Shown: piece by piece, positions 5,120 through 37,111 of the stretch
How positions within the stretch are numbered: the stretch's first letter is position 1
Layout: each line of letters starts with the position of its first letter
From: Bacteroidota bacterium
GTDB taxonomy: Bacteria; Bacteroidota; Ignavibacteria; Kapaibacteriales; DASPKH01
Direction: 5' to 3'
Assembly (NCBI GenBank): GCA_040386315.1
Contig: JAZKFS010000020.1
Coordinates: 4,620-68,619, forward strand
Length of the DNA stretch: 64,000 bases
The notes under the pieces: generated by a model
The model's input: only the letters and a program-made list of their open reading frames with translations
The model's database searches: none
Told to the model about the DNA's origin: nothing
Made by a program: the position numbers and the translations under genes

Positions 5120-5911
5120 TTAAAACCTGTATTGTAGTAAAAAGGAAACAAGCATATTGTGGATATACCCTTCGTGATCATCTGGATATGGTAGTGGAGC
5201 TTCGCTATTGTCAGGAGTAAAGAGTTCACCTCGCGCGTGATCGCGGCCGATTAGATTGACTATGCCATATCCGGCACTAAAATTAACATAAATCGGGTCG
5301 GAAATTTCACCATCTATACCAAGGCGTACAGCGCCGCCAAGACGGAAGGCGTCCGGTTTTTTCTCTCCATGTCCTATATCTAAAACTATATTATCGCCCA
5401 ATCGAACCCAGCGAAAATCAAACTGCTTGGCAATAATAAAGGCTCCTCTGGCTTCTATACCTGCATATATCCGCGCATCTCCGGGTGGATACTCTAAGAA
5501 CGCATATTCTGTACCAAGTACAAGTGTCGGCATATCTACAGGATATTTAATAAAGTATGTGGACGCGGCGAGTTGGATACGCTGTACACCACGCAGGAAA
5601 TAATAATCCAGGCCGGTGGTTATTCTCAGCTTTCTCTTAGTATCTATGCCGTACAGCATCCTTAACGATAACCCTACCTGCTGGCCGTCAAATCCCGCCC
5701 CGGGCACTTCGCCTTCCTGATGCGGCACGATATTTTCAAGTGCGGCATTCTCGTTCACGATCCACATAGTCGTCAGACCGCCGGTAAGCTGGAAATTCCG
5801 GTTGGTCTGCGCTTTTAAAGGTATAGACAAAAGCGCTATAAAAATAACGGCAAATGCGGTTTTATACAATCGTAATGCGATATGATCCATTATATTACTT
5901 TTTAAAAGCAC
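5120..5911 (-). CDS. outer-membrane beta-barrel protein (unknown function) embedded in the glycosyltransferase operon
   Basis: signal peptide, alternating amphipathic pattern, C-terminal ...LLQYRF aromatic terminus; 263 aa. Confidence 0.6.
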   Translation of the reverse strand: MLLKSNIMDHIALRLYKTAFAVIFIALLSIPLKAQTNRNFQLTGGLTTMWIVNENAALENIVPHQEGEVPGAGFDGQQVGLSLRMLYGIDTKRKLRITTGLDYYFLRGVQRIQLAASTYFIKYPVDMPTLVLGTEYAFLEYPPGDARIYAGIEARGAFIIAKQFDFRWVRLGDNIVLDIGHGEKKPDAFRLGGAVRLGIDGEISDPIYVNFSAGYGIVNLIGRDHARGELFTPDNSEAPLPYPDDHEGYIHNMLVSFLLQYRF

Positions 5912-9614: not shown

Positions 9615-9657
9615 CGTAACTATTTCTTTTAAAAACTTTTCCTTTTAAAAACTTCAA

Positions 9658-10476
9658 TTATTGCTTTATAAATCGTTGAATTTTTTTGTCGGTATCTGTT
9701 GTAATAACGATCGCATAAACTCCAGCTGGCAGATTATTCAGGTCAATTGGTTTTAAAGGGAGTGCTTCTCCTGATAAAACAGTTTGCCCTGTTACTGATA
9801 TGATCGAATATTTCGTAATATTATCCGAATGAATGAACAGCTTGTCTTGCGCAGGATTTGGATAAATACTTAGTACAGCATCTTGATTATTCGTTTTAAA
9901 ATCCTCGACTGATTCAGGTTCTGGCGACATATTAAAATGAACCGTGATACGGAGATTTTCTATATTTTCATTCGTATAGAGCGCTTCGGTTGAATCTTTT
10001 AAACTGATATTGATAATATTTCCTGTCACTAAATCCTGAATTCTTGCTGAATCTATATATTGTGAAAGTGGTTGCCATCTGATATAAAAATCTTTATAAC
10101 TGTCATCTTTATCACCCTGACGAACCGGCCCGGGCGCGATTCCCAAATCGTATGTCTTTGTAAACTGAGTTGTACTTTCAAATCCGCGGAAATCTCTATA
10201 GCTATAAATATTCAAATCCATTATTGTATCATAGAATGCAAAACGCCCACCCAACCCACTTGGCGGATAGCCAGGGTAAATGTCCTTTTCACCTAAAGCT
10301 TTATCGTAGCCATCAGTAGCTCCTTTTTTTATGCCAAATTCCAATGGAACGACAATGGTTTGTCCCGGTTTGCCGGATAGCATCATTTTAATAGTAATGC
10401 TATCAGGTTGGGCAAATGCAGAACTATAGCTAATTACCAGTGCTATAAATATTTTTAAAAGATTCTTTCCAGTCAT
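9658..10476 (-). CDS. T9SS C-terminal-sorting-domain secreted protein
   Basis: Signal peptide MTGKNLLKIFIALVISYSSAFAQ (start chosen at the internal Met; the ORF track extends to 10521). C-terminal ...KYSIISVTGQTVLSGEALPLKPIDLNNLPAGVYAIVITTDTDKKIQRFIKQ is a typical T9SS CTD. Confidence 0.7.
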   Translation of the reverse strand: MTGKNLLKIFIALVISYSSAFAQPDSITIKMMLSGKPGQTIVVPLEFGIKKGATDGYDKALGEKDIYPGYPPSGLGGRFAFYDTIMDLNIYSYRDFRGFESTTQFTKTYDLGIAPGPVRQGDKDDSYKDFYIRWQPLSQYIDSARIQDLVTGNIINISLKDSTEALYTNENIENLRITVHFNMSPEPESVEDFKTNNQDAVLSIYPNPAQDKLFIHSDNITKYSIISVTGQTVLSGEALPLKPIDLNNLPAGVYAIVITTDTDKKIQRFIKQ

Positions 10477-10579
10477 ATCTACACCTCTTACGTAGAAGAT
10501 ATGTATAAAAATGGGCAACAACGGATTGCGCCATTGTTGCCCATTGTAGAATTAATTTTCCTTTTTAAAGGAATATTTC

Positions 10580-13500
10580 TTAGTGCGTTACAGTAATTGT
10601 GCGAACGATTACTGTTTCACCAGCAACGAATTTTACAAGATACTGTCCGCTTGGAAGTGTGCTTGCATTGAATGTCAATTCCTGAGTTGCTCCAGCTACT
10701 GCTCCACTAACAAGAGTTTGTACTTCCTGTCCAAGAGCATTAAATACTTTTACAGTAGCTACACCAGCATTAGGCATAGAATATGTAATTGTAGCAACAT
10801 TTGAAACCGGGTTTGGAGATACTTTTACATCAAAGTTAGCTGCACCATTGCTTGCCTGAAGCAATTTAATAGTACCTACTTTCTTATCTGCAATTTGAAC
10901 GCTCTCTCCTTTTCCAATATTACCAATGATTTCGCCTGTAGCTGCATTTACCACTGTATATTGAGCATTTGTGTTTTCAACTGCTACGTTTACAGGATAT
11001 TCTGCACCCTGGATTCTGATCGCTGCATTACCAGTAGCAACACTGCTGTTATTAGTAAAGCGTACATCGAATAGATCAGCCGGAGGTAGTGGCGGTAATT
11101 CAAATGATTCAGTATTTACTGTTGGATTTGCTATGTATAATGAACCATTATGTGTAGCATCAGTAATACTGATCTTTGCACTATTTGCATATACTTCCTG
11201 ATTGCTGACAGTATTAGCACTATTTCCACGGGTTTCAGCAATTAGCTTAAGGAATGCTGAACCTTCAGTTACTTTTAACCAGTAGCCAAGCCCTGGAACG
11301 AGTTCAGAAACTTCAACATACCCACGATCTGTCACATATCCGTACACTCCACCAGTTCTGCGTGGCGTCGGCTGTCCAGCAATTGGATCAAACTGAATTC
11401 TGTCAATATTTACCGGTACTGATAAACTACCGATAGTATTCCATCCGGTTGAGATATTTACTTCATCGCGGAAATCAATTCTCTGAAGGCGCGTACCAGC
11501 AACTTTATTGTCAACTACCGGGCCAAATCGAACAAAGTATCCAATTCCAACTTTAGGAACTGCTGCATCCTGATAAATTCCTTTTGAGTAAATAATCGGT
11601 TGCTCAGTTAAGCGATTAGGATAGATATCATCCCAGCTCGTGCTTGACGGACGTACCGGAAGAGAAAGTAAATTCCAACCTCTTCTTGTTACCGGATATT
11701 CAATTACTTTTGGTAATGTATATTCAATAATAAAGGAGCTAATAGCAGCATCGTTAATTGTAATTGAGCGACGTGTACCACCTAATCCCGTTCCTGCTGT
11801 ACGCAGGTCAAAGCTAAAGCGTGTTCCATTTAATGTATCACGAATAAATAGTTGTCCTTCGCTTGGGAAATCTTCGGTATCATACGTGACCGTTACCTGT
11901 GATGTCGTAAAGCCAGCACCACGCTCAAAACGTACTTTATAGATTAGCGTAGTATCTGCATTAACGTTCCGTATATCACGAGATTCATACATTCCTGTTA
12001 AATCTCCCAGGCCATTTACGTGATCTGTAACTTCAGGATTTGTGCTGTATAAACGTGCGCTGAAAACTCCTGTGCCCTGAGGATCAGGATATGGAAATTC
12101 TCCAAACAATGTATCTACACCATCTGTTGCACGTAATCCGGTTCCGATCATTAATTTTGAAGTAACCGATCCGGCACCAACACGTGTAATATCAAAACGG
12201 ATACCTGTTCCACCACCATTTGTATTATTTGGCTCGTTCGGACGGCGAACATTGATATATGTTACTTTCAAACGAACCGGTGTAAATTCTGCAGATGCTG
12301 AACGAAATGTGATATAGCCCACATAGATACCTGTAGCATCCAAATCGTCCTTAATCTGAGGATCAAGTTCATTTGGATCTACTACGATACGGAAATTCAA
12401 TAATGGATCTTTCTGTGTTGTTACAGTTTGATCGGCATTTTGAAATCCAGGACCTCCAGGTCCAAGAATACCATTATCAATGTAATCTATCTCACCAAAT
12501 CTTCTAGCAGAAGGAATTGGGTTTTTTGCGCCAAAGGTTAAAAACTTTAACCATTTTGAGCTTGACTCAACACTAATATCTGTGAGGCGTGTAAAAGATA
12601 TTGACGGATCCGCGATAACATTGATCGCCTGTGTACCCCGGCTGTTTGCTAAATTTGGATTGATTGTTGCGCCATCTTCTACTACTATTGGAGTAGTTAA
12701 CTCCCATAAAGTATTGGAAAGTTGACGCACTTTAGCATCTAAACCAACATTCGGTAAGAAAGAAAAGCGCGGAACATCTGTAACTACTGCATAAATCACA
12801 CCCGGCTTAATCGGTTCTGCCGGATTTGAAAGACGATCTAATCCAGCAAGTCCAAAATTGAGGTCACCTACTGCCGGAGTAGGATACTCAGGAGTTCCTG
12901 GGAATGGGGACTGCTGAGCTATATTTAAGTCATTATACCGTAATGTATCGTTAGTAATAATGATAGGAGTATTTGTTGTACCAACTCCTGAGCTTGTTCC
13001 TACTACACGAAAACGGATATATAATAATTCCTGAAACTCACGTGCATTACAATCAACAGATTTATCATATGGATCTGTTTGTCCTGCTGCGGTAGTCGGA
13101 GCTAAGGGCTTTGTAGAAGCTCCTGCAATACGGATTCTTCTACCGAAGAAGCGGTTAGGAGTTACTACACCAAGACTTGTCTGATATGTATCATCCTCTG
13201 TATCATCAAAGCTAAGATCAAATTCTCTTGCAAGTGAATTAGTATCACTGGAAAGCGGGCCAAAACGCTCAAGGCCTACTGCTCTAAAAATACGCTCATC
13301 GTATTGTACTTTAAACTGAAAGCTATAAATCGGCGTAGCATTGAACCTAGGGTCAATACCATTTAAAAAGCAATTTTTTATAAATACAGGCACAAGGATT
13401 TCCCGAGGCTCACTATTTAAATTTATTGCTTTCGGTACATATATCCGGTCATCCGGATAATTTGTCCCATTCCCAGTTGAGTTGGGATTTGGACGGGATA

Positions 13501-13669
13501 TCAAGCTCAATTGTGGAACTTGCGGTCTAAGTAGCTGTGCCTGAGCAAATGAGCTGCCACAGATGACCATGCCCATAATCAAAGCGAAAGCTTTCAGGAG
13601 ACTATTTCTCCCTTGTAACGGATACCAGTTTTGCATAATGCTTTCTCCTAATTTTGTAAATAGGACCAT
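10580..13669 (-). CDS. large T9SS cargo protein (1029 aa) with ELPPLPPADLFDVRF motif
   Basis: signal peptide; C-terminal T9SS CTD (...TVKVFNALGQEVQTLVSGAV...GQYLVKFVAGETVIVRTITVTH); no TTTTAAAA octamers in 3.1 kb. Confidence 0.75.
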   Translation of the reverse strand: MVLFTKLGESIMQNWYPLQGRNSLLKAFALIMGMVICGSSFAQAQLLRPQVPQLSLISRPNPNSTGNGTNYPDDRIYVPKAINLNSEPREILVPVFIKNCFLNGIDPRFNATPIYSFQFKVQYDERIFRAVGLERFGPLSSDTNSLAREFDLSFDDTEDDTYQTSLGVVTPNRFFGRRIRIAGASTKPLAPTTAAGQTDPYDKSVDCNAREFQELLYIRFRVVGTSSGVGTTNTPIIITNDTLRYNDLNIAQQSPFPGTPEYPTPAVGDLNFGLAGLDRLSNPAEPIKPGVIYAVVTDVPRFSFLPNVGLDAKVRQLSNTLWELTTPIVVEDGATINPNLANSRGTQAINVIADPSISFTRLTDISVESSSKWLKFLTFGAKNPIPSARRFGEIDYIDNGILGPGGPGFQNADQTVTTQKDPLLNFRIVVDPNELDPQIKDDLDATGIYVGYITFRSASAEFTPVRLKVTYINVRRPNEPNNTNGGGTGIRFDITRVGAGSVTSKLMIGTGLRATDGVDTLFGEFPYPDPQGTGVFSARLYSTNPEVTDHVNGLGDLTGMYESRDIRNVNADTTLIYKVRFERGAGFTTSQVTVTYDTEDFPSEGQLFIRDTLNGTRFSFDLRTAGTGLGGTRRSITINDAAISSFIIEYTLPKVIEYPVTRRGWNLLSLPVRPSSTSWDDIYPNRLTEQPIIYSKGIYQDAAVPKVGIGYFVRFGPVVDNKVAGTRLQRIDFRDEVNISTGWNTIGSLSVPVNIDRIQFDPIAGQPTPRRTGGVYGYVTDRGYVEVSELVPGLGYWLKVTEGSAFLKLIAETRGNSANTVSNQEVYANSAKISITDATHNGSLYIANPTVNTESFELPPLPPADLFDVRFTNNSSVATGNAAIRIQGAEYPVNVAVENTNAQYTVVNAATGEIIGNIGKGESVQIADKKVGTIKLLQASNGAANFDVKVSPNPVSNVATITYSMPNAGVATVKVFNALGQEVQTLVSGAVAGATQELTFNASTLPSGQYLVKFVAGETVIVRTITVTH

Positions 13670-13681
13670 TGAATAAAAACT

Positions 13682-14878
13682 TTATTTATTAAGTGTTATA
13701 ATTTCCCTTGTATTAGTAAATACATTCCTTATAACTGCGATGTATTTACCTGCCTCTAATGAATTTTTATCTATAATTATGGAATTTCCTGTACTTCTGT
13801 ATTTTCCTCTTAATTGGCCCAGGATTGAATATACCATAATTTCATATCTGTCATCTATCTCTATTTTCCAGCTATCTTTTAAATCCTCTACTTTCCATTC
13901 TTTTATATTATTTATTCTATCTATTGTATTAATGATCTTTTTTTGGTTTGTAACTGAGATTGACACACTATCTTTTAAAAAAGAAACACACGAGCAATCA
14001 TTTATATCTTTTAAAACCACATTTATGCTACTTACTTCATTTGTATCTCTTTCTCTTTTAAAAACTGCTTTAATCTTGCGATCTACTGCTGAATTTGTAT
14101 CCAGATTTTTAAAAGAAATTTCAACTCCCGTTATTGTTGAGTCCACTTTTACAATTTCAATATCTTGCGTCTCTGCTGCTATTTGTGATATTTTAAAACT
14201 GGATGTATTATAATCCACTTTTAAAATCCCCTCCCTTAGCTTTGTTCCAGTCGAGGCATTTATAGAAAATATTACCTGCTGAGTAAGAATGCTATCATTA
14301 AAATTTAAACTATCTTGTGATGCTTTTACAGAAGCAAATCTTTTTAAAGACTTTCCTTCCTGCACCAGTACTTTTGCATTTACCGTATCGGTAATCGGCC
14401 TTTTAAATTCTATATCAAAATATGATATTTCTACATTAACTGTATCTGCACATGTGCTTAGCACAGTACCCAGGAAGGCTATCAGTGGTTCACTCCCTGT
14501 TACAGGAATATCTTGGATATTTCCACCTGTCGCTCTTACCACTCCTTTACCGGCAAAGTAACCCTGGGTTGGAAATCCTGTAAATTTTTCACTAAGAGTT
14601 CCACTTGTCAACACCTGATCAAACTTTATTTTATTTTGATCAAATTTTAATTCTATGTCAAAGTACAGTAAACTATCACTTTTTAAAACTTGTCCTATTT
14701 GTCCTACTTGTCCTAATGATACAGCTACCACTACCCGCTTACTTCCCGAGCAAACATCTACTGTATCAACTGCATATGCAGATATTGTTGCTACTTGCGC
14801 CATCAGGGGCTGCGCACTGATAATTAATATCAGTGGCAGCACCCATGTAAGCACTTTTTTTAAAAGCAATTGCTGCAT
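13682..14878 (-). CDS. T9SS C-terminal-sorting-domain secreted protein (AT-rich)
   Basis: signal peptide LMAQ; C-terminal ...YEIMVYSILGQLRGKYRSTGNSIIIDKNSLEAGKYIAVIRNV CTD. Confidence 0.7.
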   Translation of the reverse strand: MQQLLLKKVLTWVLPLILIISAQPLMAQVATISAYAVDTVDVCSGSKRVVVAVSLGQVGQIGQVLKSDSLLYFDIELKFDQNKIKFDQVLTSGTLSEKFTGFPTQGYFAGKGVVRATGGNIQDIPVTGSEPLIAFLGTVLSTCADTVNVEISYFDIEFKRPITDTVNAKVLVQEGKSLKRFASVKASQDSLNFNDSILTQQVIFSINASTGTKLREGILKVDYNTSSFKISQIAAETQDIEIVKVDSTITGVEISFKNLDTNSAVDRKIKAVFKRERDTNEVSSINVVLKDINDCSCVSFLKDSVSISVTNQKKIINTIDRINNIKEWKVEDLKDSWKIEIDDRYEIMVYSILGQLRGKYRSTGNSIIIDKNSLEAGKYIAVIRNVFTNTREIITLNK

Positions 14879-14879
14879 C

Positions 14880-16823
14880 TTAACGAATTACAACAAGTGT
14901 TTTATTCATTGTCATACCTTCTCCTTGTAGGCGATAGGTATATGTACCGGCTCCTACTGAATTACCGCTGTCGTCTGTTCCATTCCATTCAGTTACATTC
15001 ATTCCCTTATCCATCAGACCTGCTTTTAAAGTTTTCACTTTATTACCAAGCATATCAAATATAGCAAGTTCGTAATTTCCATTTTGTGGAATTGCAACTG
15101 TAATAGAAGTTGTATTAACTACAGGATTTGGATAGTTAGATAATGCTTGTGTATTTGCATTTTCATCCTTATTTACCAATATCGACTGTCCTGACTTTTG
15201 ATTATCATTAAATCGAACTTCATTTATTGTTAAGCTTGCATCTGAAGTTTTTACAGTAATATAGGCAATTGGCTCGTTTGCATTAAATTCGCCAGTTGCA
15301 CTGATTACTACAGTACTTCCATTCCCTTCAATAAGCACCTTGTTTTCACCAAGTTCTACGCCACTAACTTCAAGAATCTCTCCGTTCACGTTGAATTTGG
15401 TTGCAATAGCGCCTTTAGCAAAACCATTTAATTGTACAGGGATACGATATGTATTTCCATCTACATTAACTGGTGTTCCGATTGCTACATCATTTGCAGA
15501 CTTTTCATTAACACCAGCACGTCCGTAAGGGATAATGGTGTCAAGCAACCAAGGAAGTGTTGGTACACGTCCTGACATGTATAGCATAATTAAAGCAGCA
15601 TCATATTCCGTTGCTTCGAAGAAGAATGATGGATTTCCTGCAAGAAATGGCAAAGAATTATCTGGTGCCACATTTGTTAAATCATAATCAGACAGATTAC
15701 GATTTATCACCGAGCGACGGTAACGTGGTACATCAGTTGAGTTATCAGCACTTCTTGTAGAAAAATAATACCGACCGTTATGATTTACATCTCCATGAAA
15801 AGCATTGCGCTCGCGAAGACTATCTAATGGACGATTCATTGCTTGTGCACGTAGGATAACGCGAGCATCATTCACTGTTACAAAACGATTCTGTGGTAAT
15901 CCACGGTGCTTACCAACCTGTGAAAGATCAGCATCGCCATCACCCCAACCACTTACAAGAAGACGTACATTTACACTTAGACGGACAACAGTGTCACTAC
16001 CACCTGAAGGCTGCCATAAATTTGAAAGGCGTGTACTTGTACGAGCTGTATTAATGTTACCATTAAACTCAAGTGCATTAATATAATCTCCATTTTCCCC
16101 TTTAATTCCAACTGACGCGCCTTGAGTTACTACAGTTGAACCGTTTCCACCAATTTGTCCGTATGCAAATTCAATATCACCTTGAAAATTGTTTGTATTT
16201 CCTAATCTTAGGCTATCTGACTCATATAGATAAAGTTGAAAATTAGCAACACTTGATGGAATAAGCTCATTATTAATATTCAAATTTTGCCATTGCACTA
16301 TAAATGCATTTCTGAATGTCCCGCTTCCATCATTTACAGAACGTGTTCCATAAGAAATCTCTGATGGCAAATACTGTGATTCACCAAGTGTTCCCGGACC
16401 TTTACGATAATAGTGATCTCCAAAAAATGGAGCAACAATATTTACCGGTTGTGTATTTGTAAACAGTGACTGAGGATTATCTGCCGGAATATTAGGTGGC
16501 TGTGTTTTCGTAAACAACACAAATCCATTAATATTTATCCAGACATCACTATAAAGCGTACCATTATAAGAAAATTGGAATGGTAGATTAACTCGAACAT
16601 ACCCATCATCTCTATCAGCAGGATCACTTGATCCAATCTGTGGGGGAAGTCTAAAGTCGTCAGCAGGCAGGACTGTCTTGCTAACCAGTGGAGTATAAGG
16701 ACGATTGCCTACTTTGGTAGCAGCCCTAAAATCCGCCGTAACATCTGCCTGTGCCTGTTGTGTAGTTGCGCCAAAGTATAAACCTAGAGCTGCACCTACT
16801 GCCAGAAGGACACGGTATTTCAT
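14880..16823 (-). CDS. T9SS cargo protein (647 aa), possible dockerin/EF-hand-like GDVNHNG segment
   Basis: signal peptide; C-terminal ...YELAIFDMLGNKVKTLKAG...GAGTYTYRLQGEGMTMNKTLVVIR CTD. Confidence 0.75.
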   Translation of the reverse strand: MKYRVLLAVGAALGLYFGATTQQAQADVTADFRAATKVGNRPYTPLVSKTVLPADDFRLPPQIGSSDPADRDDGYVRVNLPFQFSYNGTLYSDVWININGFVLFTKTQPPNIPADNPQSLFTNTQPVNIVAPFFGDHYYRKGPGTLGESQYLPSEISYGTRSVNDGSGTFRNAFIVQWQNLNINNELIPSSVANFQLYLYESDSLRLGNTNNFQGDIEFAYGQIGGNGSTVVTQGASVGIKGENGDYINALEFNGNINTARTSTRLSNLWQPSGGSDTVVRLSVNVRLLVSGWGDGDADLSQVGKHRGLPQNRFVTVNDARVILRAQAMNRPLDSLRERNAFHGDVNHNGRYYFSTRSADNSTDVPRYRRSVINRNLSDYDLTNVAPDNSLPFLAGNPSFFFEATEYDAALIMLYMSGRVPTLPWLLDTIIPYGRAGVNEKSANDVAIGTPVNVDGNTYRIPVQLNGFAKGAIATKFNVNGEILEVSGVELGENKVLIEGNGSTVVISATGEFNANEPIAYITVKTSDASLTINEVRFNDNQKSGQSILVNKDENANTQALSNYPNPVVNTTSITVAIPQNGNYELAIFDMLGNKVKTLKAGLMDKGMNVTEWNGTDDSGNSVGAGTYTYRLQGEGMTMNKTLVVIR

Positions 16824-16914
16824 AATTACTCCTTTATTTTTTTTAAATTATTATCGTATTAGTAATCTTGCTGAGGGTTCTTTATATAAAGAACCCTCCT
16901 GCAAAACATTATTC

Positions 16915-19900
16915 TTAGCGAATAATCATCATCTGACGTGTCATATTCACTGAACCACTTGATAGACGCGCTACATACATACCTGACGGTAATGCTATGC
17001 CATTTCCATCTTTTGCATTCCATTCTATTACGTTTGCAGTCCCTGCAGGATAGAATCCGCTAAAGTCAGCTACTTTGCTTCCTAAAGCATCAAATATCTC
17101 AAACGTTACCTTTCCTTCTACAGGAAGAGTAAATTGCATTTTCGTGCTGCCTGAGAATGGATTAGGTATGTTTTGGAAAGATTCGCTATTGAATCCTGCT
17201 ACCGGCTGCTCGTCTTCTACGCCACTTGCAAAGTCATATCTAATAACGAAGTTGCTTATCGCGTCACGGAAGATAGTAACAGTAATTGTACCATCAGCAG
17301 CGCTTGTATCAACATTGATATCTTGAGCACTACGAGATGCACCTGTTCTCATATTGATCGCAAAGATATTACCCTGCGAGCTACCATCTAATAACCACCA
17401 TGAACTTCCTGCCGGGTTGCGTACTGCATCAGTTTTTGCTGGAACATTATTTTTATTCCATTTGATGGTTACAGGATAATTAGGCGAGGTATTTCCAACT
17501 ACATCACCCGCCTGGAAGCGGCCTTTGTAATATGCTTCGCCGATCACCCCAGCTACTGCTCTTGGGAAAATATCCCTTAGGGCACCATTTGACGAAGGTA
17601 TTGTCCAACGAGTGTCATACACATCAATTGGTGGAATTGGAGGTAATTCATATTCACAATAGTTAGAATCGAGTTTACCTACTGCATTTGCAGATTCACC
17701 AGTTGTAGCATTGACTGCTGTACCCCATTCAATAACCTGGAATGCGCCTTTGCTATTTGAAATAGTCATTGGTACAATAAAGTCTGTTGGTTGAGATACA
17801 TTAATTTTATAGCTGATTGTCCTTCTTGCTCCAGCTTTATCTGTTGCTGTAATGTAAAGAGTTGCTTTACCTTGAGCATCAAGAGTATCCTGGAAGTTCG
17901 TAGCTGTAATCGTCAGGGTTACTGAATCCGTTGTCTGAGGTCCCGAAATCACACTTGGGGTAACTGTAAAGCCACTTTCAGTTGTAATTGTAACGGTCTC
18001 ATTTCCATTAGTTCCCTTACGTGTAAGATCAATATCTCTAAGCACGATTGTGCCAGTATATGATTTACCAATCTCAATACATTGGACAGTCGGAATTGCA
18101 GTTAGGATCGGAGGATGATTTACAGCTATTACGCGAATTGTGAATGTGCGTACATCTGTTAACCCGCCTTCATCTTTTACAACTACCGTAAATGTTACGG
18201 TTGTATCGTTAAATGGCAAGTCTGTTACACGTGGTGTTCCAAAAAGAATTCCACTTACAGGATCAATCTTTAACCAGTTTGGCGCTGTTTTTGAATTGCG
18301 CACATCGAATGAACCTGCTTCATCTGCGAAACACTCATCACGAGGGATAAATGTGCTTGTATCGTTAGCATAAAGCAATTTGAATCTCTGATCCTGGCCG
18401 AAGTTTGGATCTGTTACACGGACTCGACGTAGTGAATCAAGAAGTGCTATATTATAATCCTGATCTTCGATTGCATCAGGGAAAGTAGCATTCTCAATAC
18501 GTGGAGCAACGTTTACCATTACACGGCGTGTAAGTGTATTAATTCTTCCATGCCCATCATTAACCACAAATGTTACAGTAGTATCGGTATTTAGAGCACC
18601 TTCAAACTGACGTACCGGGGTTAATAAATTATATGCCTGAGCTGAATCAATTCTAATACTTAGCTGCCCTGCTGATGTAAAGTCTGCACCAAATGGATCC
18701 AGAGCATTAAAATCACCATATTGTCTAAAGTACTGATTAGACATCCAGGTAGGACGTACTAGAGTCACTTCATCTGTTACTGAATCAGTTGGATTACGGC
18801 GAAGTGCAATTGATTGGAATCCATAAGCTGTTTTACCATAACGGAAGTCCCAACCGCGTGCTGCTGCTGCCGCATCTTCAGCTTCATCATCAGTCTGAAG
18901 GTCAATCTGGAAACGTAGTTTATCTGTTAAATTTGCAACAAGCATCTCATCTGTTCCACACTTATAAACATTCTGTGTGAAGATAGGATTAGTATCTGTT
19001 ACAAATACTCTAAACTGATATGTAGCTATTGAATTAGCACCTACATTAATTGTATCTTGTTGTAAGTAGCGTGCATTCGTTACATCATAAGCTTCCGCAT
19101 GGAAATATGGCGGGAAGATATTAATATATCGTGCAATAACACTATCAGCTAATCCTGCGGCACGTAATGAATCCAATGTGTTGATATTTGGCGGGAAATT
19201 ACGAATTCCTACCGTTACCATTTCACCACCCGGAACCACAAATGGATTCGTTGGACGGCCACCAAGAACACGATAGCCACGTGCACCGAATGCTGTTCCC
19301 TGTGAAGCATTGATTGTTGTATCAGTTAGCCAATATGAAAGTCCAGATCCCGGCTCTACACTATATGTATAGGTTAGTTGCGTGAAATCATTTGGAGTCA
19401 ATACTGAACGCGGATCGTAGAAGATATTTGAATCTACTCCGCTGATTGTAAAGATTGAATCACGTCCCGGAGCACGTTCTAGATCATTTACATCACGAGG
19501 ATATGTTCTATCTTCGCTTACAAAGATCATATTACGCAACTCTACCGGCAGAAGATTACGCAGGTTGTTGATGTTACCTGTAAATACTGGAGGAGGTGTT
19601 GAAACTCCTACGTTAAATACTAACGCATCATCATAAGCTGCATTTACACCTTCATTCCAAAGTACCGTACGAGAAACTACCCGAACTAAATCTCCATTTG
19701 CAACCGGTAACGCTCTATAGCGCTCACCAGCCCAGAAATTAATACGATTCACCCTGTTTTGATCAATCTGACTATTGTCATCGTTTGATATTGGAAGGCG
19801 AGGACGATTGCTAAACTGAACTCCAAACTCGTTTGGAGCGCCTAAGACATTCGAACCAGCCTCATACCGGCGTCCGACTAGTGCTGCCGCATCTTCATTT

Positions 19901-22900
19901 GCTCCATTCTGAGCTAATTGAGCTAACAACTCACGTCCACTACCTAAGTTTGCTAATCCTTCAGCCGAACGGCGGAATGTCGTATTACCAGTTCTATTTG
20001 CTGAATCTGGTAGCATTTCAATCCGTCCTCTGAATATCTCGCTAGACGTTGTGACTTGGCGAAGATTCGCACGTACAAAGTCACCCGTTGTTTCGTTGAT
20101 TACGAAGAATACAGTTTCATTAACTGTAGGAGCATTTGGATGATCCTGGTTACTCAACTCTGCTGTTCCGCTATAATTAGCGCGTGTTTCAAGGAATAAA
20201 GGATAACCAATTGGCTGGTCGCCCTTGAATTCACTTTGCAGAGCATTGATATTAGCATCAACTTCAGCTACAAATGGATCACGTCCTAAACGGCGTACAT
20301 AGCGATTAAATGAAGGCGAACCCGCAGTATTTGTAAAACGACGAATTGATTTTGGAATACCTACAGCAAAGTCCTCAATCGGTGACATGCGACGACGTGA
20401 ATAATCAGCTGTCTTAATGTCCGTACCTTTATCAAAAAGATCATATATACGGCCCTGCATTAATAGTTTCTCTGGAATACTATTTGCAGCCGGTGTATTT
20501 TGATTATCAAATGCTATGTTGCCAACAGGAATTGGCGTATAGTTAAAACGTTGAGAGGATTCAAACGGCCCTTGCTCTTTAGGATTTGAACTATTGCGGA
20601 TATAACGCAAATGCGTAGTACCGTCACCAGCTACAAAGAAAGTCTCCTGAAGAGTTCCTGATTCCGGTAGTATTGTCGTTACCGGTGCTTCAGTCTGGCC
20701 CCAGTAATTACCGCGAAGAGTATCAACACCACCACTTCCAATAAGGCCGGTTGACGAAGTTCCTTTTGTATTAGGAGCATCAGGAAGGCGAATCAGAAAG
20801 CGTGCTGTATTATCATACATTGAATTCGCAGCAATGCTTGAAGAAGCATACGGAAGAGGCCCGATAATTTCTCCATAGAGAATTGCTCCCGCAAGATCAC
20901 TTGATGCAGGGTTTTCTCTGAAAGCCGAAGTTGTCCGGATATATGGCCCTGTAATTGCATTCTGCTCACGGCCTGTATCAGATAATGCAGTATTATTAGT
21001 AATAAGTGAGCGCTGGAATACTAATTTTAGATCGTAGTTATCTGAATATACCGCTGCTCCTGTGAATGCAGTATTATTTTGAATACGCACGCGATTAAAG
21101 ATAATAGAATCAGTACGACCGATATTATTTGTTGAAGCTTCATCAAGAATGTAAATAGCACCACCTAAGCCGGTACCGTTTTCAGGTAATCCTACGCCAG
21201 GGTGTGTACGTACTACATCACCTAATTGAGTTGTTCCTGTACCAAGCTGTGCAAGATTTACAACAGCTTCATTATCAATGAATCGTGTAAGCATCCGTGC
21301 ATCAGGCGGCGTAATTGCTGAAGCAGCATTTGTAAATACTTCATTTGACGAAGTAAATGTCGTTGCTTCACCTGATGGCAAGGTTGTTAACTGATCTAAG
21401 TCTGTTAACATATATCGTCTGGAATCATCACCAGGGCTAACCATTGCTACTGCTCCACCATTACTAAAGTTTGCGGTATTCATTACGAATTCCACTCCTT
21501 TTAGAACATTAAGAGTAGCGTTTAGCGTATAGATGGCACCACCACCACGAACCAACGCACGGGATGAAGCTTGAAGAGTTGCATCTGAAGTATCAACAAA
21601 TCTTCCTAGACCTACCACATTGCTGTCCAAGATAGCACGAACTATTTGTACATAGCGGCGCGCTAATGGCAAAGCCGGATCAATATTTAATGTAATAGCA
21701 CCACCGGAATACCCTGCTGTATTACGTGTAAATTCTACACGGAATGGGCGTGAATAACCAATAACCAGGTTACCTGATACACCACCAGCTCCATATACGG
21801 TCATGTTTTTCTGAGCATAGATAGCACCACCATGAAAGGTAGCTACGTTACGATCAAATACAACATTATACCCATAGTTGCGAGTTAAGATAAGTGCATC
21901 AGATCCACCAATGATTGGTGATGGGCGTACTTCGCTCAATGTCGCTGAATTACCAACGAAGATAGCACCGCCTCTTGAAGCTCTGTTGCTTAAGTAGTGT
22001 GATGGATATCTTGAATCAAGCGTCTGACCGCCACGAACCTGTAAACGTCCTGCAGTAGCATCTACATAAATAGCTCCACCCATTGAATAGCTCAATGAAT
22101 TTGTACCTGCAGTAGGATTATCACTGATAAATGGAACAATCGCTTGATTAGCATTGAATCTACCGGCAATTGTTACAGATGTCTGCTCACCTACATATAG
22201 TGCACCACCACGCGCTCCCAATGTACCTGCATTATTCTGAAGATTGTTAGCAATGTTACCGCTAAAGTTAATATAATCATTAGAACCGGTAGAAATACCA
22301 TTAACATCATTATTAACACCTAATGCCACTTCAATAGCACTTCCACCATTAGCAGCACTTGCACCGGCAATAACCATTGCCCCACCAAATGCCTGATTTC
22401 TGGCAGCTGTTCCATTAAAGGTTGCAGCATTATTTACATCGTCAGTTAAGATCGTACCTACACCCGGTACAAATATCTGGCGAACATTTGCATTAATTAC
22501 TCTATTTGCATCAAAGTTTAACTGACGAACACGTCCTAATAACACCGCTAAACGTGCATCATCCACACCTTGACGCTGTACATCTGTAAATGGCTCAGCT
22601 GTTGCCGTAGCAAGATTATCAATTGCAGGAATAGCCTGAACTACGGCTGCACCGGTTGAATTTTCAGTTACAGCACCGTTTGCAGTACCAGGATAATTCG
22701 GAAGCGCTGCTGTTGATACAGTTGGAAATAGTCCAGTTCCAACCGGAGCTTCCAGAAGTTGAAGAGCACCACCGCGATTACGGGCAAAGTTGTTTGTGAA
22801 ATTACAGTTTACAAGCCACGTACGTGACGAGAAACTTGTAAGAGCACCACCACCACCATTAGAACGTGAACGTAAATCATCATTTACTGCTGCACGTGCT

Positions 22901-23775
22901 GCTGTTGTTCCACCAGCTTGGTAATAATCTCTTCTATCTACTGTAGTATCTTTGCGGAAATCTTGAAAATTTACGTCACGGAAAAATGCAGCCCGTGCAC
23001 CCGGAAGAACAACGATATGTCCATACTCACGCGAGAAAGCGTTTACACGGCGACCTTTAAAGGTAATCGTTGATGGAGTAATATTTACACTACTACCATT
23101 TGCACGGAGGAATGATTGAATATTAATGTTTGGGTCAGTATTTGCAAACCGTAAGCGAGCTGCTGTATAAAGCAACGCTGCTTCAGGAGTTGCAAGAAAC
23201 TGCGGAGAATTCGTTGTTGCAGTCGGGTCACTTAAGTTTATTAAGTTACGATTACGCGAATTCGCTGTACCACCGGTTTGACCAGGAGCAAGCGTAGTAT
23301 CCAGGACAACGTTATAAACAAAATTATTTTTGCCTGAATTTGCAGTATTACGATTTCCTGCTACAGTTACCTCATTCGGTGTTGAAATTGTAAACACACC
23401 CGGAGATAAAAAGAAACCAGGATCAGCAAAACCATAAGGGCGCTGGATGCCCGGAGTTACCGGGTCTAGATCAACGTTAATAAAATTAACATTGTTGTAT
23501 GTTACCGACATACGCCCGTCAGCGATAATACGCCCGCCGGTCGAGTCAATCATACGGCCGTTATCGGTAAACTCTACAGTTGTACCCGGCTCAATAATTA
23601 AAGTACCGCCAATAGTATATGTACCATTGACGCGATAGAGAGTATCTCTCAAAAATACTCGGACTTCGCCGGGACTGACACGCCCATTGACTTCCGCAAT
23701 TGGCGGCGCAGCAAACACTTCAGAAGCTGAAAGTGCAAGCACCATCCATAAAGCTAAACGAAACAAACGTTGCAT
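16915..23775 (-). CDS. giant T9SS cargo protein (~2290 aa): Pmp-like GGAI beta-helix repeats + cadherin/Ig-like region + ELPPIPPIDVYDTRW motif + T9SS CTD
   Basis: About 11 GGA[IL][YFT] repeats (GGAIYVDATA, HGGAIYAQKN, SGGAITLNID, LGGAIYILDE...). Start set at the Met preceded by GGAGG (MQRLFRLALWMVLALSASEVFA); the ORF track extends to 23847. C-terminal ...KVTFEIFDALGSKV...GMYVARLSSG CTD. Confidence 0.8.
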   Translation of the reverse strand: MQRLFRLALWMVLALSASEVFAAPPIAEVNGRVSPGEVRVFLRDTLYRVNGTYTIGGTLIIEPGTTVEFTDNGRMIDSTGGRIIADGRMSVTYNNVNFINVDLDPVTPGIQRPYGFADPGFFLSPGVFTISTPNEVTVAGNRNTANSGKNNFVYNVVLDTTLAPGQTGGTANSRNRNLINLSDPTATTNSPQFLATPEAALLYTAARLRFANTDPNINIQSFLRANGSSVNITPSTITFKGRRVNAFSREYGHIVVLPGARAAFFRDVNFQDFRKDTTVDRRDYYQAGGTTAARAAVNDDLRSRSNGGGGALTSFSSRTWLVNCNFTNNFARNRGGALQLLEAPVGTGLFPTVSTAALPNYPGTANGAVTENSTGAAVVQAIPAIDNLATATAEPFTDVQRQGVDDARLAVLLGRVRQLNFDANRVINANVRQIFVPGVGTILTDDVNNAATFNGTAARNQAFGGAMVIAGASAANGGSAIEVALGVNNDVNGISTGSNDYINFSGNIANNLQNNAGTLGARGGALYVGEQTSVTIAGRFNANQAIVPFISDNPTAGTNSLSYSMGGAIYVDATAGRLQVRGGQTLDSRYPSHYLSNRASRGGAIFVGNSATLSEVRPSPIIGGSDALILTRNYGYNVVFDRNVATFHGGAIYAQKNMTVYGAGGVSGNLVIGYSRPFRVEFTRNTAGYSGGAITLNIDPALPLARRYVQIVRAILDSNVVGLGRFVDTSDATLQASSRALVRGGGAIYTLNATLNVLKGVEFVMNTANFSNGGAVAMVSPGDDSRRYMLTDLDQLTTLPSGEATTFTSSNEVFTNAASAITPPDARMLTRFIDNEAVVNLAQLGTGTTQLGDVVRTHPGVGLPENGTGLGGAIYILDEASTNNIGRTDSIIFNRVRIQNNTAFTGAAVYSDNYDLKLVFQRSLITNNTALSDTGREQNAITGPYIRTTSAFRENPASSDLAGAILYGEIIGPLPYASSSIAANSMYDNTARFLIRLPDAPNTKGTSSTGLIGSGGVDTLRGNYWGQTEAPVTTILPESGTLQETFFVAGDGTTHLRYIRNSSNPKEQGPFESSQRFNYTPIPVGNIAFDNQNTPAANSIPEKLLMQGRIYDLFDKGTDIKTADYSRRRMSPIEDFAVGIPKSIRRFTNTAGSPSFNRYVRRLGRDPFVAEVDANINALQSEFKGDQPIGYPLFLETRANYSGTAELSNQDHPNAPTVNETVFFVINETTGDFVRANLRQVTTSSEIFRGRIEMLPDSANRTGNTTFRRSAEGLANLGSGRELLAQLAQNGANEDAAALVGRRYEAGSNVLGAPNEFGVQFSNRPRLPISNDDNSQIDQNRVNRINFWAGERYRALPVANGDLVRVVSRTVLWNEGVNAAYDDALVFNVGVSTPPPVFTGNINNLRNLLPVELRNMIFVSEDRTYPRDVNDLERAPGRDSIFTISGVDSNIFYDPRSVLTPNDFTQLTYTYSVEPGSGLSYWLTDTTINASQGTAFGARGYRVLGGRPTNPFVVPGGEMVTVGIRNFPPNINTLDSLRAAGLADSVIARYINIFPPYFHAEAYDVTNARYLQQDTINVGANSIATYQFRVFVTDTNPIFTQNVYKCGTDEMLVANLTDKLRFQIDLQTDDEAEDAAAAARGWDFRYGKTAYGFQSIALRRNPTDSVTDEVTLVRPTWMSNQYFRQYGDFNALDPFGADFTSAGQLSIRIDSAQAYNLLTPVRQFEGALNTDTTVTFVVNDGHGRINTLTRRVMVNVAPRIENATFPDAIEDQDYNIALLDSLRRVRVTDPNFGQDQRFKLLYANDTSTFIPRDECFADEAGSFDVRNSKTAPNWLKIDPVSGILFGTPRVTDLPFNDTTVTFTVVVKDEGGLTDVRTFTIRVIAVNHPPILTAIPTVQCIEIGKSYTGTIVLRDIDLTRKGTNGNETVTITTESGFTVTPSVISGPQTTDSVTLTITATNFQDTLDAQGKATLYITATDKAGARRTISYKINVSQPTDFIVPMTISNSKGAFQVIEWGTAVNATTGESANAVGKLDSNYCEYELPPIPPIDVYDTRWTIPSSNGALRDIFPRAVAGVIGEAYYKGRFQAGDVVGNTSPNYPVTIKWNKNNVPAKTDAVRNPAGSSWWLLDGSSQGNIFAINMRTGASRSAQDINVDTSAADGTITVTIFRDAISNFVIRYDFASGVEDEQPVAGFNSESFQNIPNPFSGSTKMQFTLPVEGKVTFEIFDALGSKVADFSGFYPAGTANVIEWNAKDGNGIALPSGMYVARLSSGSVNMTRQMMIIR

Positions 23776-23885
23776 AGAACCTCCGTTTGGTAAAAAAGAA
23801 TTAACCACATTATTACTATTATTTATAATTTTTAAATCTGTTTTCATTATTTTCTTAACTGATGTACAGGTATGTATTGGATAGT

Positions 23886-24674
23886 TTATTCAATTACCGT
23901 GCCAAGTCTTCCGAGAGCGCTTTTTGCTAAGCCGGAAAACTCAGTATATTCATTCTGACCGACAACTTCACGATACAGTTTTTCTGCTTTCTGCTTATCA
24001 TTTGCTTTTTCATAAGCCAGAGCAGCAAAGTATTTATATCGTTCTTCAAGTCCTATTTCTGCTCCGGCAGATGCTGCTTTTTCATATAGTTCCGCAGCAT
24101 TTTTAAAATCTCCCTTCTCTTCCTTAGCAGCGGCAAGGCCGGCCTGTGCACCCGCCTGTACTAATGGAGAATCCGAATCATCAGCATCTTCAAAATATTT
24201 CACTGCCTGATCGGCTTTGCGTTGCGCCAGCATTGCATTGCCTGCATAAAGGGCCGCTACATTTCCGGTTTCCGTCCCATCATAATCACGAACAATCCTC
24301 TCCAAACCATATACGCTTTGACCACGAACTTTGCGTGAAGGATCGCCTTTTAAAGCTTTTTCATAATCTCCTGCATCATAATATTCACGAATGCGAGAGA
24401 GCGCCAAGGCTCCTTCATTCGTTTTTGCTTCGTTCTGTGAACGGAAAAACAGCCAGGCAGCAGCGGCTATCAGTACAACTGCCGTAATGCCTCCAATCAG
24501 TTTGAGGTTTTCCTGAAGTTTCGTCCGTACATTTTGAAGCTGTGTATCTTCAGCTGTAGTCTCTTCAGCATCGTATACCGCTACATTTCCTTTTGGATTT
24601 GTATCCATTATCCTTCTCGCTTTCTGGTGATTTTGGAATATTAAAAGATTTTTTAAACACTCTTGGGATAACAA
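23886..24674 (-). CDS. TPR-repeat membrane-anchored protein (YfgM/YbgF-like)
   Basis: single TM helix (LIGGITAVVLIAAAAWLFF) followed by TPR-like helices; start uncertain (alternative Met at MDTNPKG). Confidence 0.6.
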   Translation of the reverse strand: MLSQECLKNLLIFQNHQKARRIMDTNPKGNVAVYDAEETTAEDTQLQNVRTKLQENLKLIGGITAVVLIAAAAWLFFRSQNEAKTNEGALALSRIREYYDAGDYEKALKGDPSRKVRGQSVYGLERIVRDYDGTETGNVAALYAGNAMLAQRKADQAVKYFEDADDSDSPLVQAGAQAGLAAAKEEKGDFKNAAELYEKAASAGAEIGLEERYKYFAALAYEKANDKQKAEKLYREVVGQNEYTEFSGLAKSALGRLGTVIE

Positions 24675-24677
24675 TAG

Positions 24678-24751
24678 TGCGCCCGAAGGGGATCGAACCC
24701 CCAGCCTTTGGAATCGGAATCCAACGCTCTATCCAATTGAGCTACGGGCGC
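24678..24751 (-). tRNA. tRNA-Arg (anticodon CCG)
   Basis: The reverse complement folds as a cloverleaf. Acceptor GCGCCCG/CGGGCGC, D-arm GCTC-AATTGGATA-GAGC, anticodon arm TTGGA-TTCCGAT-TCCAA (U33, CCG, A37), T-arm GGGGG-TTCGATC-CCCTT. CCA is not encoded. Confidence 0.85.
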
Positions 24752-24903
24752 CTCTACATTATTATTTTTAAAAGACTGCTGCTAATCTTTTAAAAGCAAG
24801 TTGCAAATATAGCAGTCCCAAGCTCAAAAACAAATGAATTTTTTTTTAAAGTTTTTTTAAAAAGCAAATTTTGTGGAAAACTTTTCTACTTTCCCTTTTA
24901 AAA

Positions 24904-24960
24904 AGTGTCAGGTTTTTTTCATAGTGTCAGGTTTATTACACACTTTTTATTCTGACACTT
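24904..24960. promoter_or_regulatory. three copies of AGTGTCAG(GTTT): two direct, 19 bp apart, plus one inverted, in the tRNA-Arg upstream region
   Basis: AGTGTCAGGTTT at 24904 and 24923; inverted CTGACACTT at 24952. Likely transcription-factor operator or promoter element. Confidence 0.4.
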
Positions 24961-24993
24961 TACACTTTTTAAAAAATCTTTTAAAAACTTGTT

Positions 24994-35614: not shown

Positions 35615-37111
35615 TTAAAAATGAAACTGACCGCTTATATAAAGAACGGTTGCAGTAAGATTATGCGATAAAGCGGGAATTGAATTACTATATTTACGCC
35701 CAAAATTTTCAACTGATGCATCATATTTCGGCGTTACAAAATCCGGCACCACATGTTGGCGTACCGATACATGATATGATACACTCGGAGTTACATAATA
35801 TCCAACTGAACCACCTATCATCCACCCGATTAAAGATTCAGCCTTTTCAAATATCAGCGGCGGCTGGGGTTGAATTCCTTCATCCGCAGGAGCAGGGTAC
35901 GTAAGCCTGCCATTTACACTAGCATTTGTAACTGTAGCTCCAAGTGCAATGGAGGTTTCAAATCCTGCCGGGCTTAAAACCAATGGCGAATTAATGATGA
36001 ACACTCCATATACTGTACCTGATAGGGTGCGTACTGCATAGAAATCCTGATCTTCAGGAAACGGCTCATTGAGTAATTTACCCGGTAAGAACTCAGCCCC
36101 GATACGTAAGCGACGTGTTATAGAATATTCAGCATTAATGGTGTAGCCAAAATAGCGTGTTAAATTAATCTCCGTTGGAGACTTGATATCAGGAAGTGCG
36201 GCGGCTAATCCCAGGGACAGATGAAATCTTTTCATATATGTCTTGGTTTCTTCATCAGTGATTGGAAGCTTGCTCTCTTTTAATGCCTCTGCTGTTTCGA
36301 TTGATCGTTTCACTTCCGGTGGAATTCGTATAGTATTATTAATGATAGATTCACTCTCCAGTATACTTTGCCATTGATTAAAGATCTCCTTTCTCCTTCC
36401 GATTATTATATCGGAGTATTGGGTGTATCCATATAGCGCGCCATAACCTGCGCCTAGAAGCATACTTGGAACTATATCTATACTATTATACTGCCTGCTA
36501 ATCCTCTCCATAATATACCACCCTAAGGCTCCCGCTGTAGCTACGGTTCCGGCTTTTACTGAAGTATTCAGCAGTGGCCGGTCTTTAAAATGGATTTTAT
36601 CAATATCCTGAAATGAAATAACCTGAATATTCTTCTCTGCTTCACGCCAGCTATATTTCTCGGAATTCTTCCAGATTCCGAGCAAGGAATCATTGACGAA
36701 TAATAAGCGACCGCTAATATCTCTACCTTCGCTTGTCACCCGCACTACTTTTCCATCCGCCGGTTCTATTTCAGATATTCTGACATATTTCCGTACTACA
36801 GGATTTGCTTTAAATCTTTCCGGCTCTTCAGCATTCTCGATGTATGACTTTATTTCTTCTGCATCTTTAAAGCTGATCGTAAAGTTTGTATCATTACGCT
36901 CTTTTCTGGTAATGATTATTGTAATAGAATCAGCGTTTTTCTCAGCTCTTGCCGATACAAATCGTCCAATATCATAAAACAGTCCGAAATATACACGTTC
37001 ATCCGCATCTATTCCATCACCTACACGTTCACTTATCCTATACTTTTCGCTCTGACCAAAACTTACTACAAATCCGATAAAAAATATAACTACAATCCTT
37101 ACCAATAGCAT
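35615..37111 (-). CDS. outer-membrane beta-barrel protein, unknown function
   Basis: signal/[22 protein letters not shown] (start at internal Met; ORF track extends to 37144); C-terminal ...LYISGQFHF. Confidence 0.55.

Follow-up and report, generated by a model that had tools for sequence, protein, structure and literature searches.

The locus described here raises a simple question: why do three large neighbouring genes lack the octamer that abounds in the DNA around them? The window (the whole stretch of 64 kb that was analysed, from contig JAZKFS010000020.1 of a metagenome-assembled genome, or MAG) is rich in the palindromic octamer TTTTAAAA, while the genes at 10580-13669, 14880-16823 and 16915-23847 hold no copy of it. 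These genes belong to a block encoding cargo proteins of the type IX secretion system (T9SS), located next to a tRNA-Arg gene. A preliminary description of the region offered two explanations, namely recent horizontal transfer to a tRNA integration site, or counter-selection of the octamer in Lys-poor secreted proteins. The comparisons presented below show that the block is an ancestral Kapaibacteria operon of T9SS cargo genes, a conserved part of the chromosome and not an imported island. With moderate confidence, it is proposed that this ancient operon is octamer-free mostly as a consequence of the Lys that the octamer forces on a protein, and which these proteins avoid.

The features needed to follow the argument are listed next; genes are open reading frame (ORF) calls with approximate start codons, and GC3 is the G+C fraction at third codon positions.

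24994-27198, minus strand: gene for a 2-oxoisovalerate dehydrogenase E1 alpha/beta fusion (Pfam), hereafter E1, the housekeeping anchor for the synteny and strain comparisons.
24677-24751, minus strand: tRNA-Arg(CCG) (ARAGORN), with its 3' end facing the block.
23886-24674, minus strand: gene for a TPR protein (Pfam TPR families), first of the conserved block, with 1 octamer at 24101.
14859-24100, no strand: octamer-free stretch of 9.2 kb, the largest gap of the window (the third-largest is 2.2 kb).
16915-23847, minus strand: giant gene for a 2310-aa Pmp-like T9SS cargo protein (Por_Secre_tail, POMP_repeat, He_PIG), 0 octamers.
16824-16914, minus strand: spacer between the giant and NIDO-like genes, with a strong hairpin just after the giant gene and no octamer in any lineage.
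14880-16823, minus strand: gene for a 647-aa NIDO-like T9SS cargo protein (Pfam and NCBIfam), Lys 2.9%, GC3 0.22, 0 octamers.
13682-14878, minus strand: fast-evolving, Lys-rich gene for a 398-aa protein with a weak T9SS tail, Lys 8.5%, GC3 0.24, 8 octamers.
10454-13972, no strand: octamer-free stretch of 3.5 kb, the second-largest gap of the window.
10580-13669, minus strand: gene for a 1029-aa T9SS cargo protein (Por_Secre_tail), Lys 3.0%, GC3 0.26, 0 octamers.
9658-10521, minus strand: gene for a 287-aa T9SS cargo protein, Lys 6.6%, 2 octamers.
7203-9614, minus strand: Pyr_redox_2 gene (Pfam) on the far flank of the block, 9 octamers, 8 of them positionally shared with the related locus L084.

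A recount of the octamer returns zero for each of the three genes, as had been reported, and exactly 8 for 13682-14878, where about 8 had been seen. From their length (12 kb), about 33-35 copies would be expected at 2.9 per kb; the deficit is therefore real, although the figure of ~40 missing copies given initially was too high. The joint probability of three zeros is 2e-6 to 8e-6 when only length is considered (negative binomial, overdispersed). The description of these genes as Lys-poor with AT-rich third positions is likewise correct. Their GC3 ranges from 0.22 to 0.26 (0.22-0.30 across the block, against a modal range of 0.41-0.66), while genes outside the block lie mostly at 0.41-0.72, with four at 0.23-0.33. 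Lys makes up 1.6-3.0% of the three proteins versus mostly 5-12% elsewhere, Arg 5.1-6.8%, and Ser, Thr, Asn and Gly together (S/T/N/G) 31-34%; the giant protein has 1.6% Lys, 6.8% Arg and a GC3 of 0.26. Their proposed nature as T9SS cargo is borne out by the sorting domain TIGR04183, which is found above its curated cut-off in 9658-10521, 10580-13669, 14880-16823 and 16915-23847, and below it in 13682-14878. Hydrophobic stretches are visible by eye at the N-termini of the cargo translations.

The octamer itself occurs 215 times in the 64-kb window (43% G+C), where it is the commonest 8-mer, compared with 12.2 copies expected from an order-2 Markov model and ~2.7 from base composition. This is a density of ~3,360 per Mb and an observed/expected ratio of ~18 (order-2 Markov) to ~80 (base composition), which places TTTTAAAA among palindromic octamers of the highly iterated palindrome (HIP) type, being the top 8-mer with a ratio well above 10. 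Its reverse arrangement, AAAATTTT, has only 10 copies, and no other palindromic octamer exceeds 12. The palindrome is prolonged by its flanks to YTTTTAAAAR. Intergenic DNA (5.8 kb) is touched by 84 copies, at 17-34 per kb depending on the type of spacer, and the other 131 are intragenic, in ~45 kb of background coding sequence (2.9 per kb); these background statistics come from ~38 genes of one window. No regular spacing was obvious among the clustered intergenic octamers of the window. No gene for a DNA methyltransferase or for competence to which the octamer might be attributed was recognised in the window, only generic S-adenosylmethionine methyltransferase folds, and a literature search with the TTTTAAAA string gave no over-represented bacterial motif among the matches listed.

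The way in which the octamer enters genes is restricted by the genetic code. All 131 coding octamers are read in two frames, either NTT-TTA-AAA, encoding [FLIV]-L-K, or NNT-TTT-AAA-A, encoding x-F-K-[IMTNKSR], because the third frame contains TAA. In the background genes, 131 of 146 contexts that could hold an octamer by synonymous choice (90%) do hold one, and just 7 one-step synonymous neighbours of the octamer are left, whereas the three octamer-free genes realise none of their 3 contexts. Of 12 octamer sites compared across gatB, E1, a MeaB-like gene and the TPR gene, 11 are variable in octamer-free relatives (FI, LQ, LG, VE, LD, LS and others), which mostly lack FK or LK there. Moreover, the probability of Lys after [FLIV]L is 0.219 in comparison with an overall Lys frequency of 0.07. 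Coding copies thus occupy residues of low conservation and make the peptides they encode more frequent, as described for uptake sequences. According to these alignments, coding octamers arise mainly by replacement of another residue by Lys at tolerant, variable positions.

The contribution of Lys to the deficit was estimated by negative-binomial regression of the octamer number on 38 background genes. The percentage of Lys was the only informative covariate (Akaike information criterion 161 vs 169), with a GC3 coefficient of ~0. As predictors of octamer density, GC3, S/T/N/G content and F+L content were also tried, and none of them performed better than Lys. The number of octamers expected in the three genes falls from 32.6 (length) to 10.7 when Lys is considered and to 8.8 when S/T/N/G content is added, and a rate per Lys residue gives 10.5. 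Between about two thirds and five sixths of the missing octamers can thus be put down to the scarcity of Lys, which leaves a residual that is real but modest. Counting FK and LK dipeptides, a check that had been proposed for separating amino-acid effects from effects on the DNA, gave 14 in the three proteins together, about the number predicted from composition, of which only the 3 mentioned above could hold an octamer by synonymous choice.

Several genes of the window act as internal controls. Within the block, all 8 synonymous-capable contexts of 13682-14878 are realised, and a further T9SS cargo gene outside it (56406-59120, 904 aa, GC3 0.32, Lys 6.3%) has 8 octamers. These two genes, together with 9658-10521 (2 octamers), show that neither position in the block, nor export by the T9SS, nor low GC3 is the cause of the desert. 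In addition, the giant protein contains far less Lys than E1 in all 31 octamer-free relatives compared, and hence the avoidance of Lys is ancestral and not a by-product of the octamer.

From these data, we infer that intolerance to Lys is the cause of the desert. In ordinary genes, almost every context of a hydrophobic residue followed by Lys carries an octamer, most of these contexts having been made by replacement of a variable residue by Lys. The three secreted families are rich in S/T/N/G and, in every relative, shun Lys in favour of Arg, so that they would offer almost no site for the octamer. In this way, the three genes would never have left the neutral, octamer-naive level since the clade arose.

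The age of the block was established by comparing gene order. Relatives were identified by a scan with the neighbouring E1 dehydrogenase, keeping one genome per species, which gave 80 loci with best identities of 74-76%. Nearly all of them are labelled as Kapaibacteria, Ignavibacteria or Chlorobi-group MAGs; L073 is from the cultured Geothrix campi. The source MAG, in turn, bears the label "Bacteroidota bacterium", which looks too coarse or misplaced given the labels of these housekeeping relatives. The order E1, TPR, giant gene (~2,300 aa) and NIDO-like gene, the latter where the locus reaches that far, is kept in 38 octamer-free relatives. TPR orthologs follow E1 in 39 loci, and syntenic orthologs of the 647-aa NIDO-like protein are present in 30. 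The tRNA-Arg(CCG) gene itself comes directly after E1 in L001, L002, L014, L034 and L062, and ~1.8 kb after it in L055. The same gene order is seen in L086 and L087, which are the nearest outgroups (E1 identity 76-78%). Furthermore, locus L084, on the 985-kb JGI contig Ga0485821_000007, encodes the TPR protein, the giant, proteins of 648, 393, 1057 and 286 aa, Pyr_redox_2, the glycosyltransferase GT2, an unnamed protein, GT9 and GT1, an order that matches the window from 24674 down to 2853 gene for gene and spans both proposed island borders.

Homologs of the individual proteins are equally widespread. Giant orthologs covering most or all of the length (60% coverage filter) are found in 34 relatives at 41-47.5% identity, and for the 1029-aa protein a further 87 homologs reach E<=1e-30 in Kapaibacteria and Ignavibacteria, 84 of them at 31-40% identity. 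These homologs are full-length with the exception of a truncated 606-aa call of the same gene. In fact, the public record of 10580-13669 (P0131) has 606 aa; since the open frame encodes 1029 aa and the orthologs have ~1003-1123 aa, this deposited annotation is probably truncated. The 398-aa protein of 13682-14878 likewise has no exact counterpart in the public records, where its start is called differently.

Recent acquisition as an island at the 3' end of tRNA-Arg, with genes too young to have gathered octamers, was suggested by three features of the block: it abuts the tRNA 3' end, its GC3 of 0.22-0.30 lies well below that of its neighbours, and motif-free genes have served as markers of transfer in genomes rich in HIP1 or in uptake sequences (PMC3497702, PMC2817400). 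Nevertheless, each border of the supposed island lies inside the conserved gene order just described. The 23-nt 3' end of the tRNA, compared with the rest of the window at a tolerance of 3 mismatches, has no other match there, so the direct repeat expected at the distal boundary is lacking. Across 9000-25200, the only generic direct repeats are short matches containing the octamer and intragenic protein repeats. A search of the block genes with Pfam and NCBIfam gave no integrase or mobility domain, only T9SS sorting, TPR, NIDO, Ig-like and Pmp repeat domains, and no empty site was found in the 38 relatives, L086, L087 or the sister lineages. As for base composition, 37 of 38 relatives have a giant gene whose GC3 falls below that of E1, by 0.09 on average and by at most the 0.20 of the window, and low GC3 is a trait of the giant gene's family everywhere. 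Recent horizontal transfer is refuted by the conserved synteny and can be given almost no credence.

Comparison of the octamer across lineages leads in the same direction. An excess of TTTTAAAA is absent from 82 other loci (the 80 relatives plus L086 and L087), and it is present in five other assemblies: L081/L088 (Logan SRR24788683), L084 (JGI sample 3300043546), L085 (Logan SRR35182696), L082 and L083, the last two being short NCBI contigs. In L081, L083 and L084, it is the top 8-mer. Between the window and L081, 19 octamers are shared, 3 are found only in the window and 12 only in L081, all differences being single-base variants or indels. Between the window and L084, 14 are shared and 12 are lineage-specific. 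Gain and loss of TTTTAAAA have therefore continued since the lineages split. Despite this turnover, 13 of the 15 intergenic octamers that the window has in the region aligned with L081 are unchanged there at 86% intergenic identity, while ~31% would be expected neutrally, and 8 of the 9 octamers in the Pyr_redox_2 gene are shared with L084, even though synonymous sites are near saturation throughout that comparison (42-63% identical codons at conserved residues). Both inside and outside genes, the octamer is thus kept more often than neutrality would predict, as in HIP-type motifs. Since copies are shared across saturated lineages, the expansion of TTTTAAAA predates their splits and the copies are held by selection. 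On this comparative basis, TTTTAAAA appears to be a clade-specific, selectively maintained, hyper-abundant palindrome of one narrow Kapaibacteria clade.

The three genes are empty wherever the octamer is abundant. Neither L081/L088 nor L084 has a single octamer in its orthologs of the giant, NIDO-like and 1029-aa genes, and L085, where only the 1029-aa gene is available, also has 0, although these lineages are not independent samples if the rate of octamer gain is low. In contrast, orthologs of 13682-14878 have 5 (L082), 10 (L083), 2 (L084) and 5 (L088) octamers, and the flanking genes are rich. The block was in place before the three octamer-bearing lineages split, and octamers turned over around it; as the three genes remain empty in every octamer-rich lineage, the explanation that they are too young fails. 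Within 13682-14878, a Lys-rich segment of ~250 bp (13973-14219) holds 6 of the 8 octamers, and with copy numbers varying among orthologs, it is a local hotspot of turnover. The single octamer of the TPR gene (24101) is common to L081 and reads TTTTAAAG in L084.

These independent assemblies also bear on the trivial explanation that the desert is due to chance or to an assembly artefact, for instance a chimeric contig including DNA of an octamer-free organism. The source is indeed a metagenome-assembled genome. However, L081/L088, L084 and L085, assembled from other samples, show the same arrangement and octamer pattern, which refutes this explanation. The block also has an octamer-rich gene at its centre, and the length-only probability given above argues against chance; of the explanations considered here, this one is the least credible.

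The tRNA gene does mark a boundary, but of another kind. The adjacency of the tRNA-Arg(CCG) 3' end to the block is real; what lies there is not an island integration site but an edge of allelic divergence between strains. Identity of the window to L081 is 100% across the tRNA and drops to ~70% directly 3' of it, and the other step is found near 4050, at the junction between GT9 and GT1, which delimits the following feature:

~4050-24676, no strand: segment of ~20.6 kb deeply diverged from its counterpart in L081/L088, with 39-58% identical codons at conserved residues.

This segment contains the T9SS operon, the Pyr_redox_2 gene, GT2 and GT9 glycosyltransferase genes and one unannotated gene (5120-5911). 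In the flanks, gatB, an aminotransferase gene and E1 have 97.5-99% protein identity and 77-80% identical codons with respect to L081/L088, and GT1, on the far side, has 95.6% identity and 77% identical codons. As judged from these identity profiles, the tRNA is precisely where the alleles of two close strains begin to diverge deeply, and the segment is a locus for surface structures that members of the clade have exchanged through homologous recombination.

Such exchange suggests another origin for the desert, in which alleles would have been replaced in place, by repeated homologous recombination with those of octamer-free relatives. The mosaic is of the recombination type (39-58% versus 77-80% identical codons) and affects a locus for surface structures, and the best scores of the giant protein are with a clade of mid to high GC, by a slight margin over the relatives that are nearest according to E1. 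However, the diverged segment also carries octamer-rich genes with positionally shared octamers: the Pyr_redox_2 gene has 9 copies versus 8 in the other allele, of which 5 are shared, 13682-14878 shares 3, and GT2 and GT9 hold shared copies too. The donor must therefore have been octamer-rich, and the exchange is not the cause of the desert. Moreover, the three giant alleles are equidistant, with 76-80% amino-acid identity to one another that is uniform along the gene, and no internal mosaic indicative of partial import was detected in the giant gene. No closer octamer-free donor of this gene was found among the relatives, none of which exceeds 47.5% identity. Finally, divergence between the window and L084 is equal in block and flank. 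Taken together, these data make allelic replacement very improbable as the source of the octamer-free genes, if slightly less so than transfer of an island.

The remaining alternative is active counter-selection, in which the octamer would have a harmful local effect in cis and would be purged from genes and spacers beyond what Lys dictates. Candidate effects include binding of a protein that perturbs transcription, mRNA cleavage (at UUUUAAAA), or slippage on U_UUA_AAA, which would yield cargo without the C-terminal sorting domain. Several observations fit such a scenario or weigh against an explanation by Lys poverty. First of all, the Lys models still predict 9-11 octamers in the three genes, with a joint probability of zero of 3e-4 to 9e-4, a prediction for which the regression has to reach Lys contents lower than any in the background genes; Lys-poor background genes (Lys 3.4-5.1%) average ~1.2 octamers per kb. 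Second, none of the 31 lineage-specific Lys residues of the giant and NIDO-like proteins falls in an octamer, against 8 of 54 in four housekeeping proteins and the TPR protein, when ~4.6 octamers would be expected at the 31 positions (P ~0.007). Third, among the spacers of 30 bp or more that adjoin the three genes, only 3 of 11 (three lineages) hold an octamer, in comparison with 22 of 24 in the window background, and their 4 octamers in 833 bp amount to 4.8 per kb; a purely protein-level constraint does not predict such depletion of spacers. The 3 synonymous-capable contexts that do exist in these genes are all unrealised, and Lys in the giant protein (1.5-1.6% in the window and L084) is at the bottom of the range of its relatives (1.7-4.8% in one comparison, 1.3-5.4% in another).

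Outside the block, the gene at 1-1660 (minus strand), which is partial because it is cut by the left end of the window, has 0 octamers in 1.7 kb; its product is a secreted protein whose N-terminus resembles a signal peptide. With 4.7% Lys, 34.5% S/T/N/G and a GC3 of 0.28, it hints at an effect of protein class beyond Lys.

Avoidance as such is nonetheless not demonstrable in the three genes. Reshuffling of synonymous codons within them gives an expectation of 0.40 octamers, and the observed zero is at, not below, this level, whereas other genes lie 5-10 times above their own reshuffle means. The gene 13682-14878, in the same string of genes, has 8 octamers, the 904-aa T9SS cargo gene also has 8, a 1075-aa gene has 14, and the TPR-giant spacer of L081 carries 2, so exclusion is not absolute. 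Of the second explanation in the preliminary description, the part concerning Lys-poor composition holds for about two thirds of the deficit, and counter-selection is considered rather unlikely. A more specific version, in which TTTTAAAA is a functional, selectively maintained genome-wide signal of recent origin in one Kapaibacteria clade, at or above the density of HIP1, and the T9SS operon and its spacers are kept free of it by purifying selection through a cis effect, is somewhat more doubtful still.

With regard to the individual genes and spacers, the true start of the TPR gene is probably ~60 nt inside the ORF, as the orthologs have 241 aa. The giant protein contains 10 GGA[ILV] and 20 FxxN motifs, together with 7 copies of GGTGGTGC, and it is probably owing to these repeats that GGTGGTGC and TGGTGGTG rank high among the 8-mers at the loci of many relatives (many of L009-L063). 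The hairpin between the giant and NIDO-like genes keeps its structure with a different sequence in the three lineages (fold z-scores -5.8, -5.4 and -4.0; counterparts at 13266-13362 in L081 and 7948-8049 in L084). From the folding predictions, it is likely a terminator or an mRNA-stabilising element, followed by an AGGAG ribosome-binding site. In the E1-tRNA spacer, 24890-24965 consists of repeated GTGTCAGG / CCTGACAC units, direct and inverted, interleaved with octamers, an array that may be a terminator or a site for protein binding. The largest annotated octamer-free gene outside the block is a 509-aa ORF at 35615-37144 (minus strand), without Pfam or NCBIfam match, with a GC3 of 0.33, 5.1% Lys and 0 octamers.

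Among known repeated motifs, the closest counterpart of TTTTAAAA is HIP1 (GCGATCGC) from cyanobacteria, which reaches 300-2,700 copies per Mb with observed/expected ratios of 55-228 (PMC4390886), and for which more conservation than neutrality predicts has been reported between genomes, in coding as well as non-coding DNA (PMC5861425). Both are palindromic octamers that are the top 8-mer, occur in coding and non-coding DNA and are conserved between genomes. Unlike HIP1, TTTTAAAA is composed only of A and T, lacks a GATC or CGATCG methylation core and has been met only in a narrow, uncultured clade of Kapaibacteria. Genes can use it in only two frames, owing to TAA, and it always costs a Lys codon, which leads to composition-dependent deserts such as this block. 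The octamer also resembles the DNA uptake sequences of Pasteurellaceae (uptake signal sequences, USS) and Neisseria (DNA uptake sequences, DUS) in being short and hyper-abundant, in enriching certain peptides and in its intergenic enrichment, but it is palindromic and about three times denser. Uptake sequences reshape peptides and sit at poorly conserved residues (Findlay and Redfield, PMC2817400), and motif-free genes have been read as recent arrivals (PMC2817400; see also PMC3497702). Here, the rule for USS is reversed, as the motif-free genes are old and poorly conserved.

The block and its segment can be compared with other systems as well. Like the integrase-mediated genomic islands associated with tRNA genes, such as pathogenicity islands and ICEs, the block adjoins a tRNA 3' end, has a lower GC3 than its neighbours and holds surface or secreted genes; in contrast to them, it lacks an integrase, an att repeat and presence/absence polymorphism, and both of its flanks are syntenic across the class. 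The ~20.6-kb segment, with adhesin-like and glycosyltransferase genes diverged between near-identical strains and with sharp edges, is reminiscent of hypervariable surface-structure loci of the O-antigen or capsule type, which lie between conserved genes and are maintained by allelic exchange. However, the gene content of the alleles is identical here and only the sequence differs, and one edge is a tRNA gene. The giant protein, for its part, shares with chlamydial Pmp proteins the GGA[ILV] and FxxN motifs and matches to POMP_repeat and Chlam_PMP, to which a C-terminal Por_Secre_tail is added; instead of an autotransporter barrel, it holds a T9SS sorting domain and is thus predicted to be exported by that system.

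As a candidate island, this block is ordinary, and the clade-specific, AT-only palindrome is the more remarkable object. The locus is a cautionary case, in which a motif-free block of low GC3 beside a tRNA can be ancient and largely explained by the Lys that the motif encodes; detectors of horizontal transfer based on oligomers would falsely flag these genes. For the clade itself, Lys-poor genes and their spacers are the places in which the cost and function of the octamer could be read. If the reading based on purifying selection were true, the desert would be a "negative image" revealing what the octamer does.

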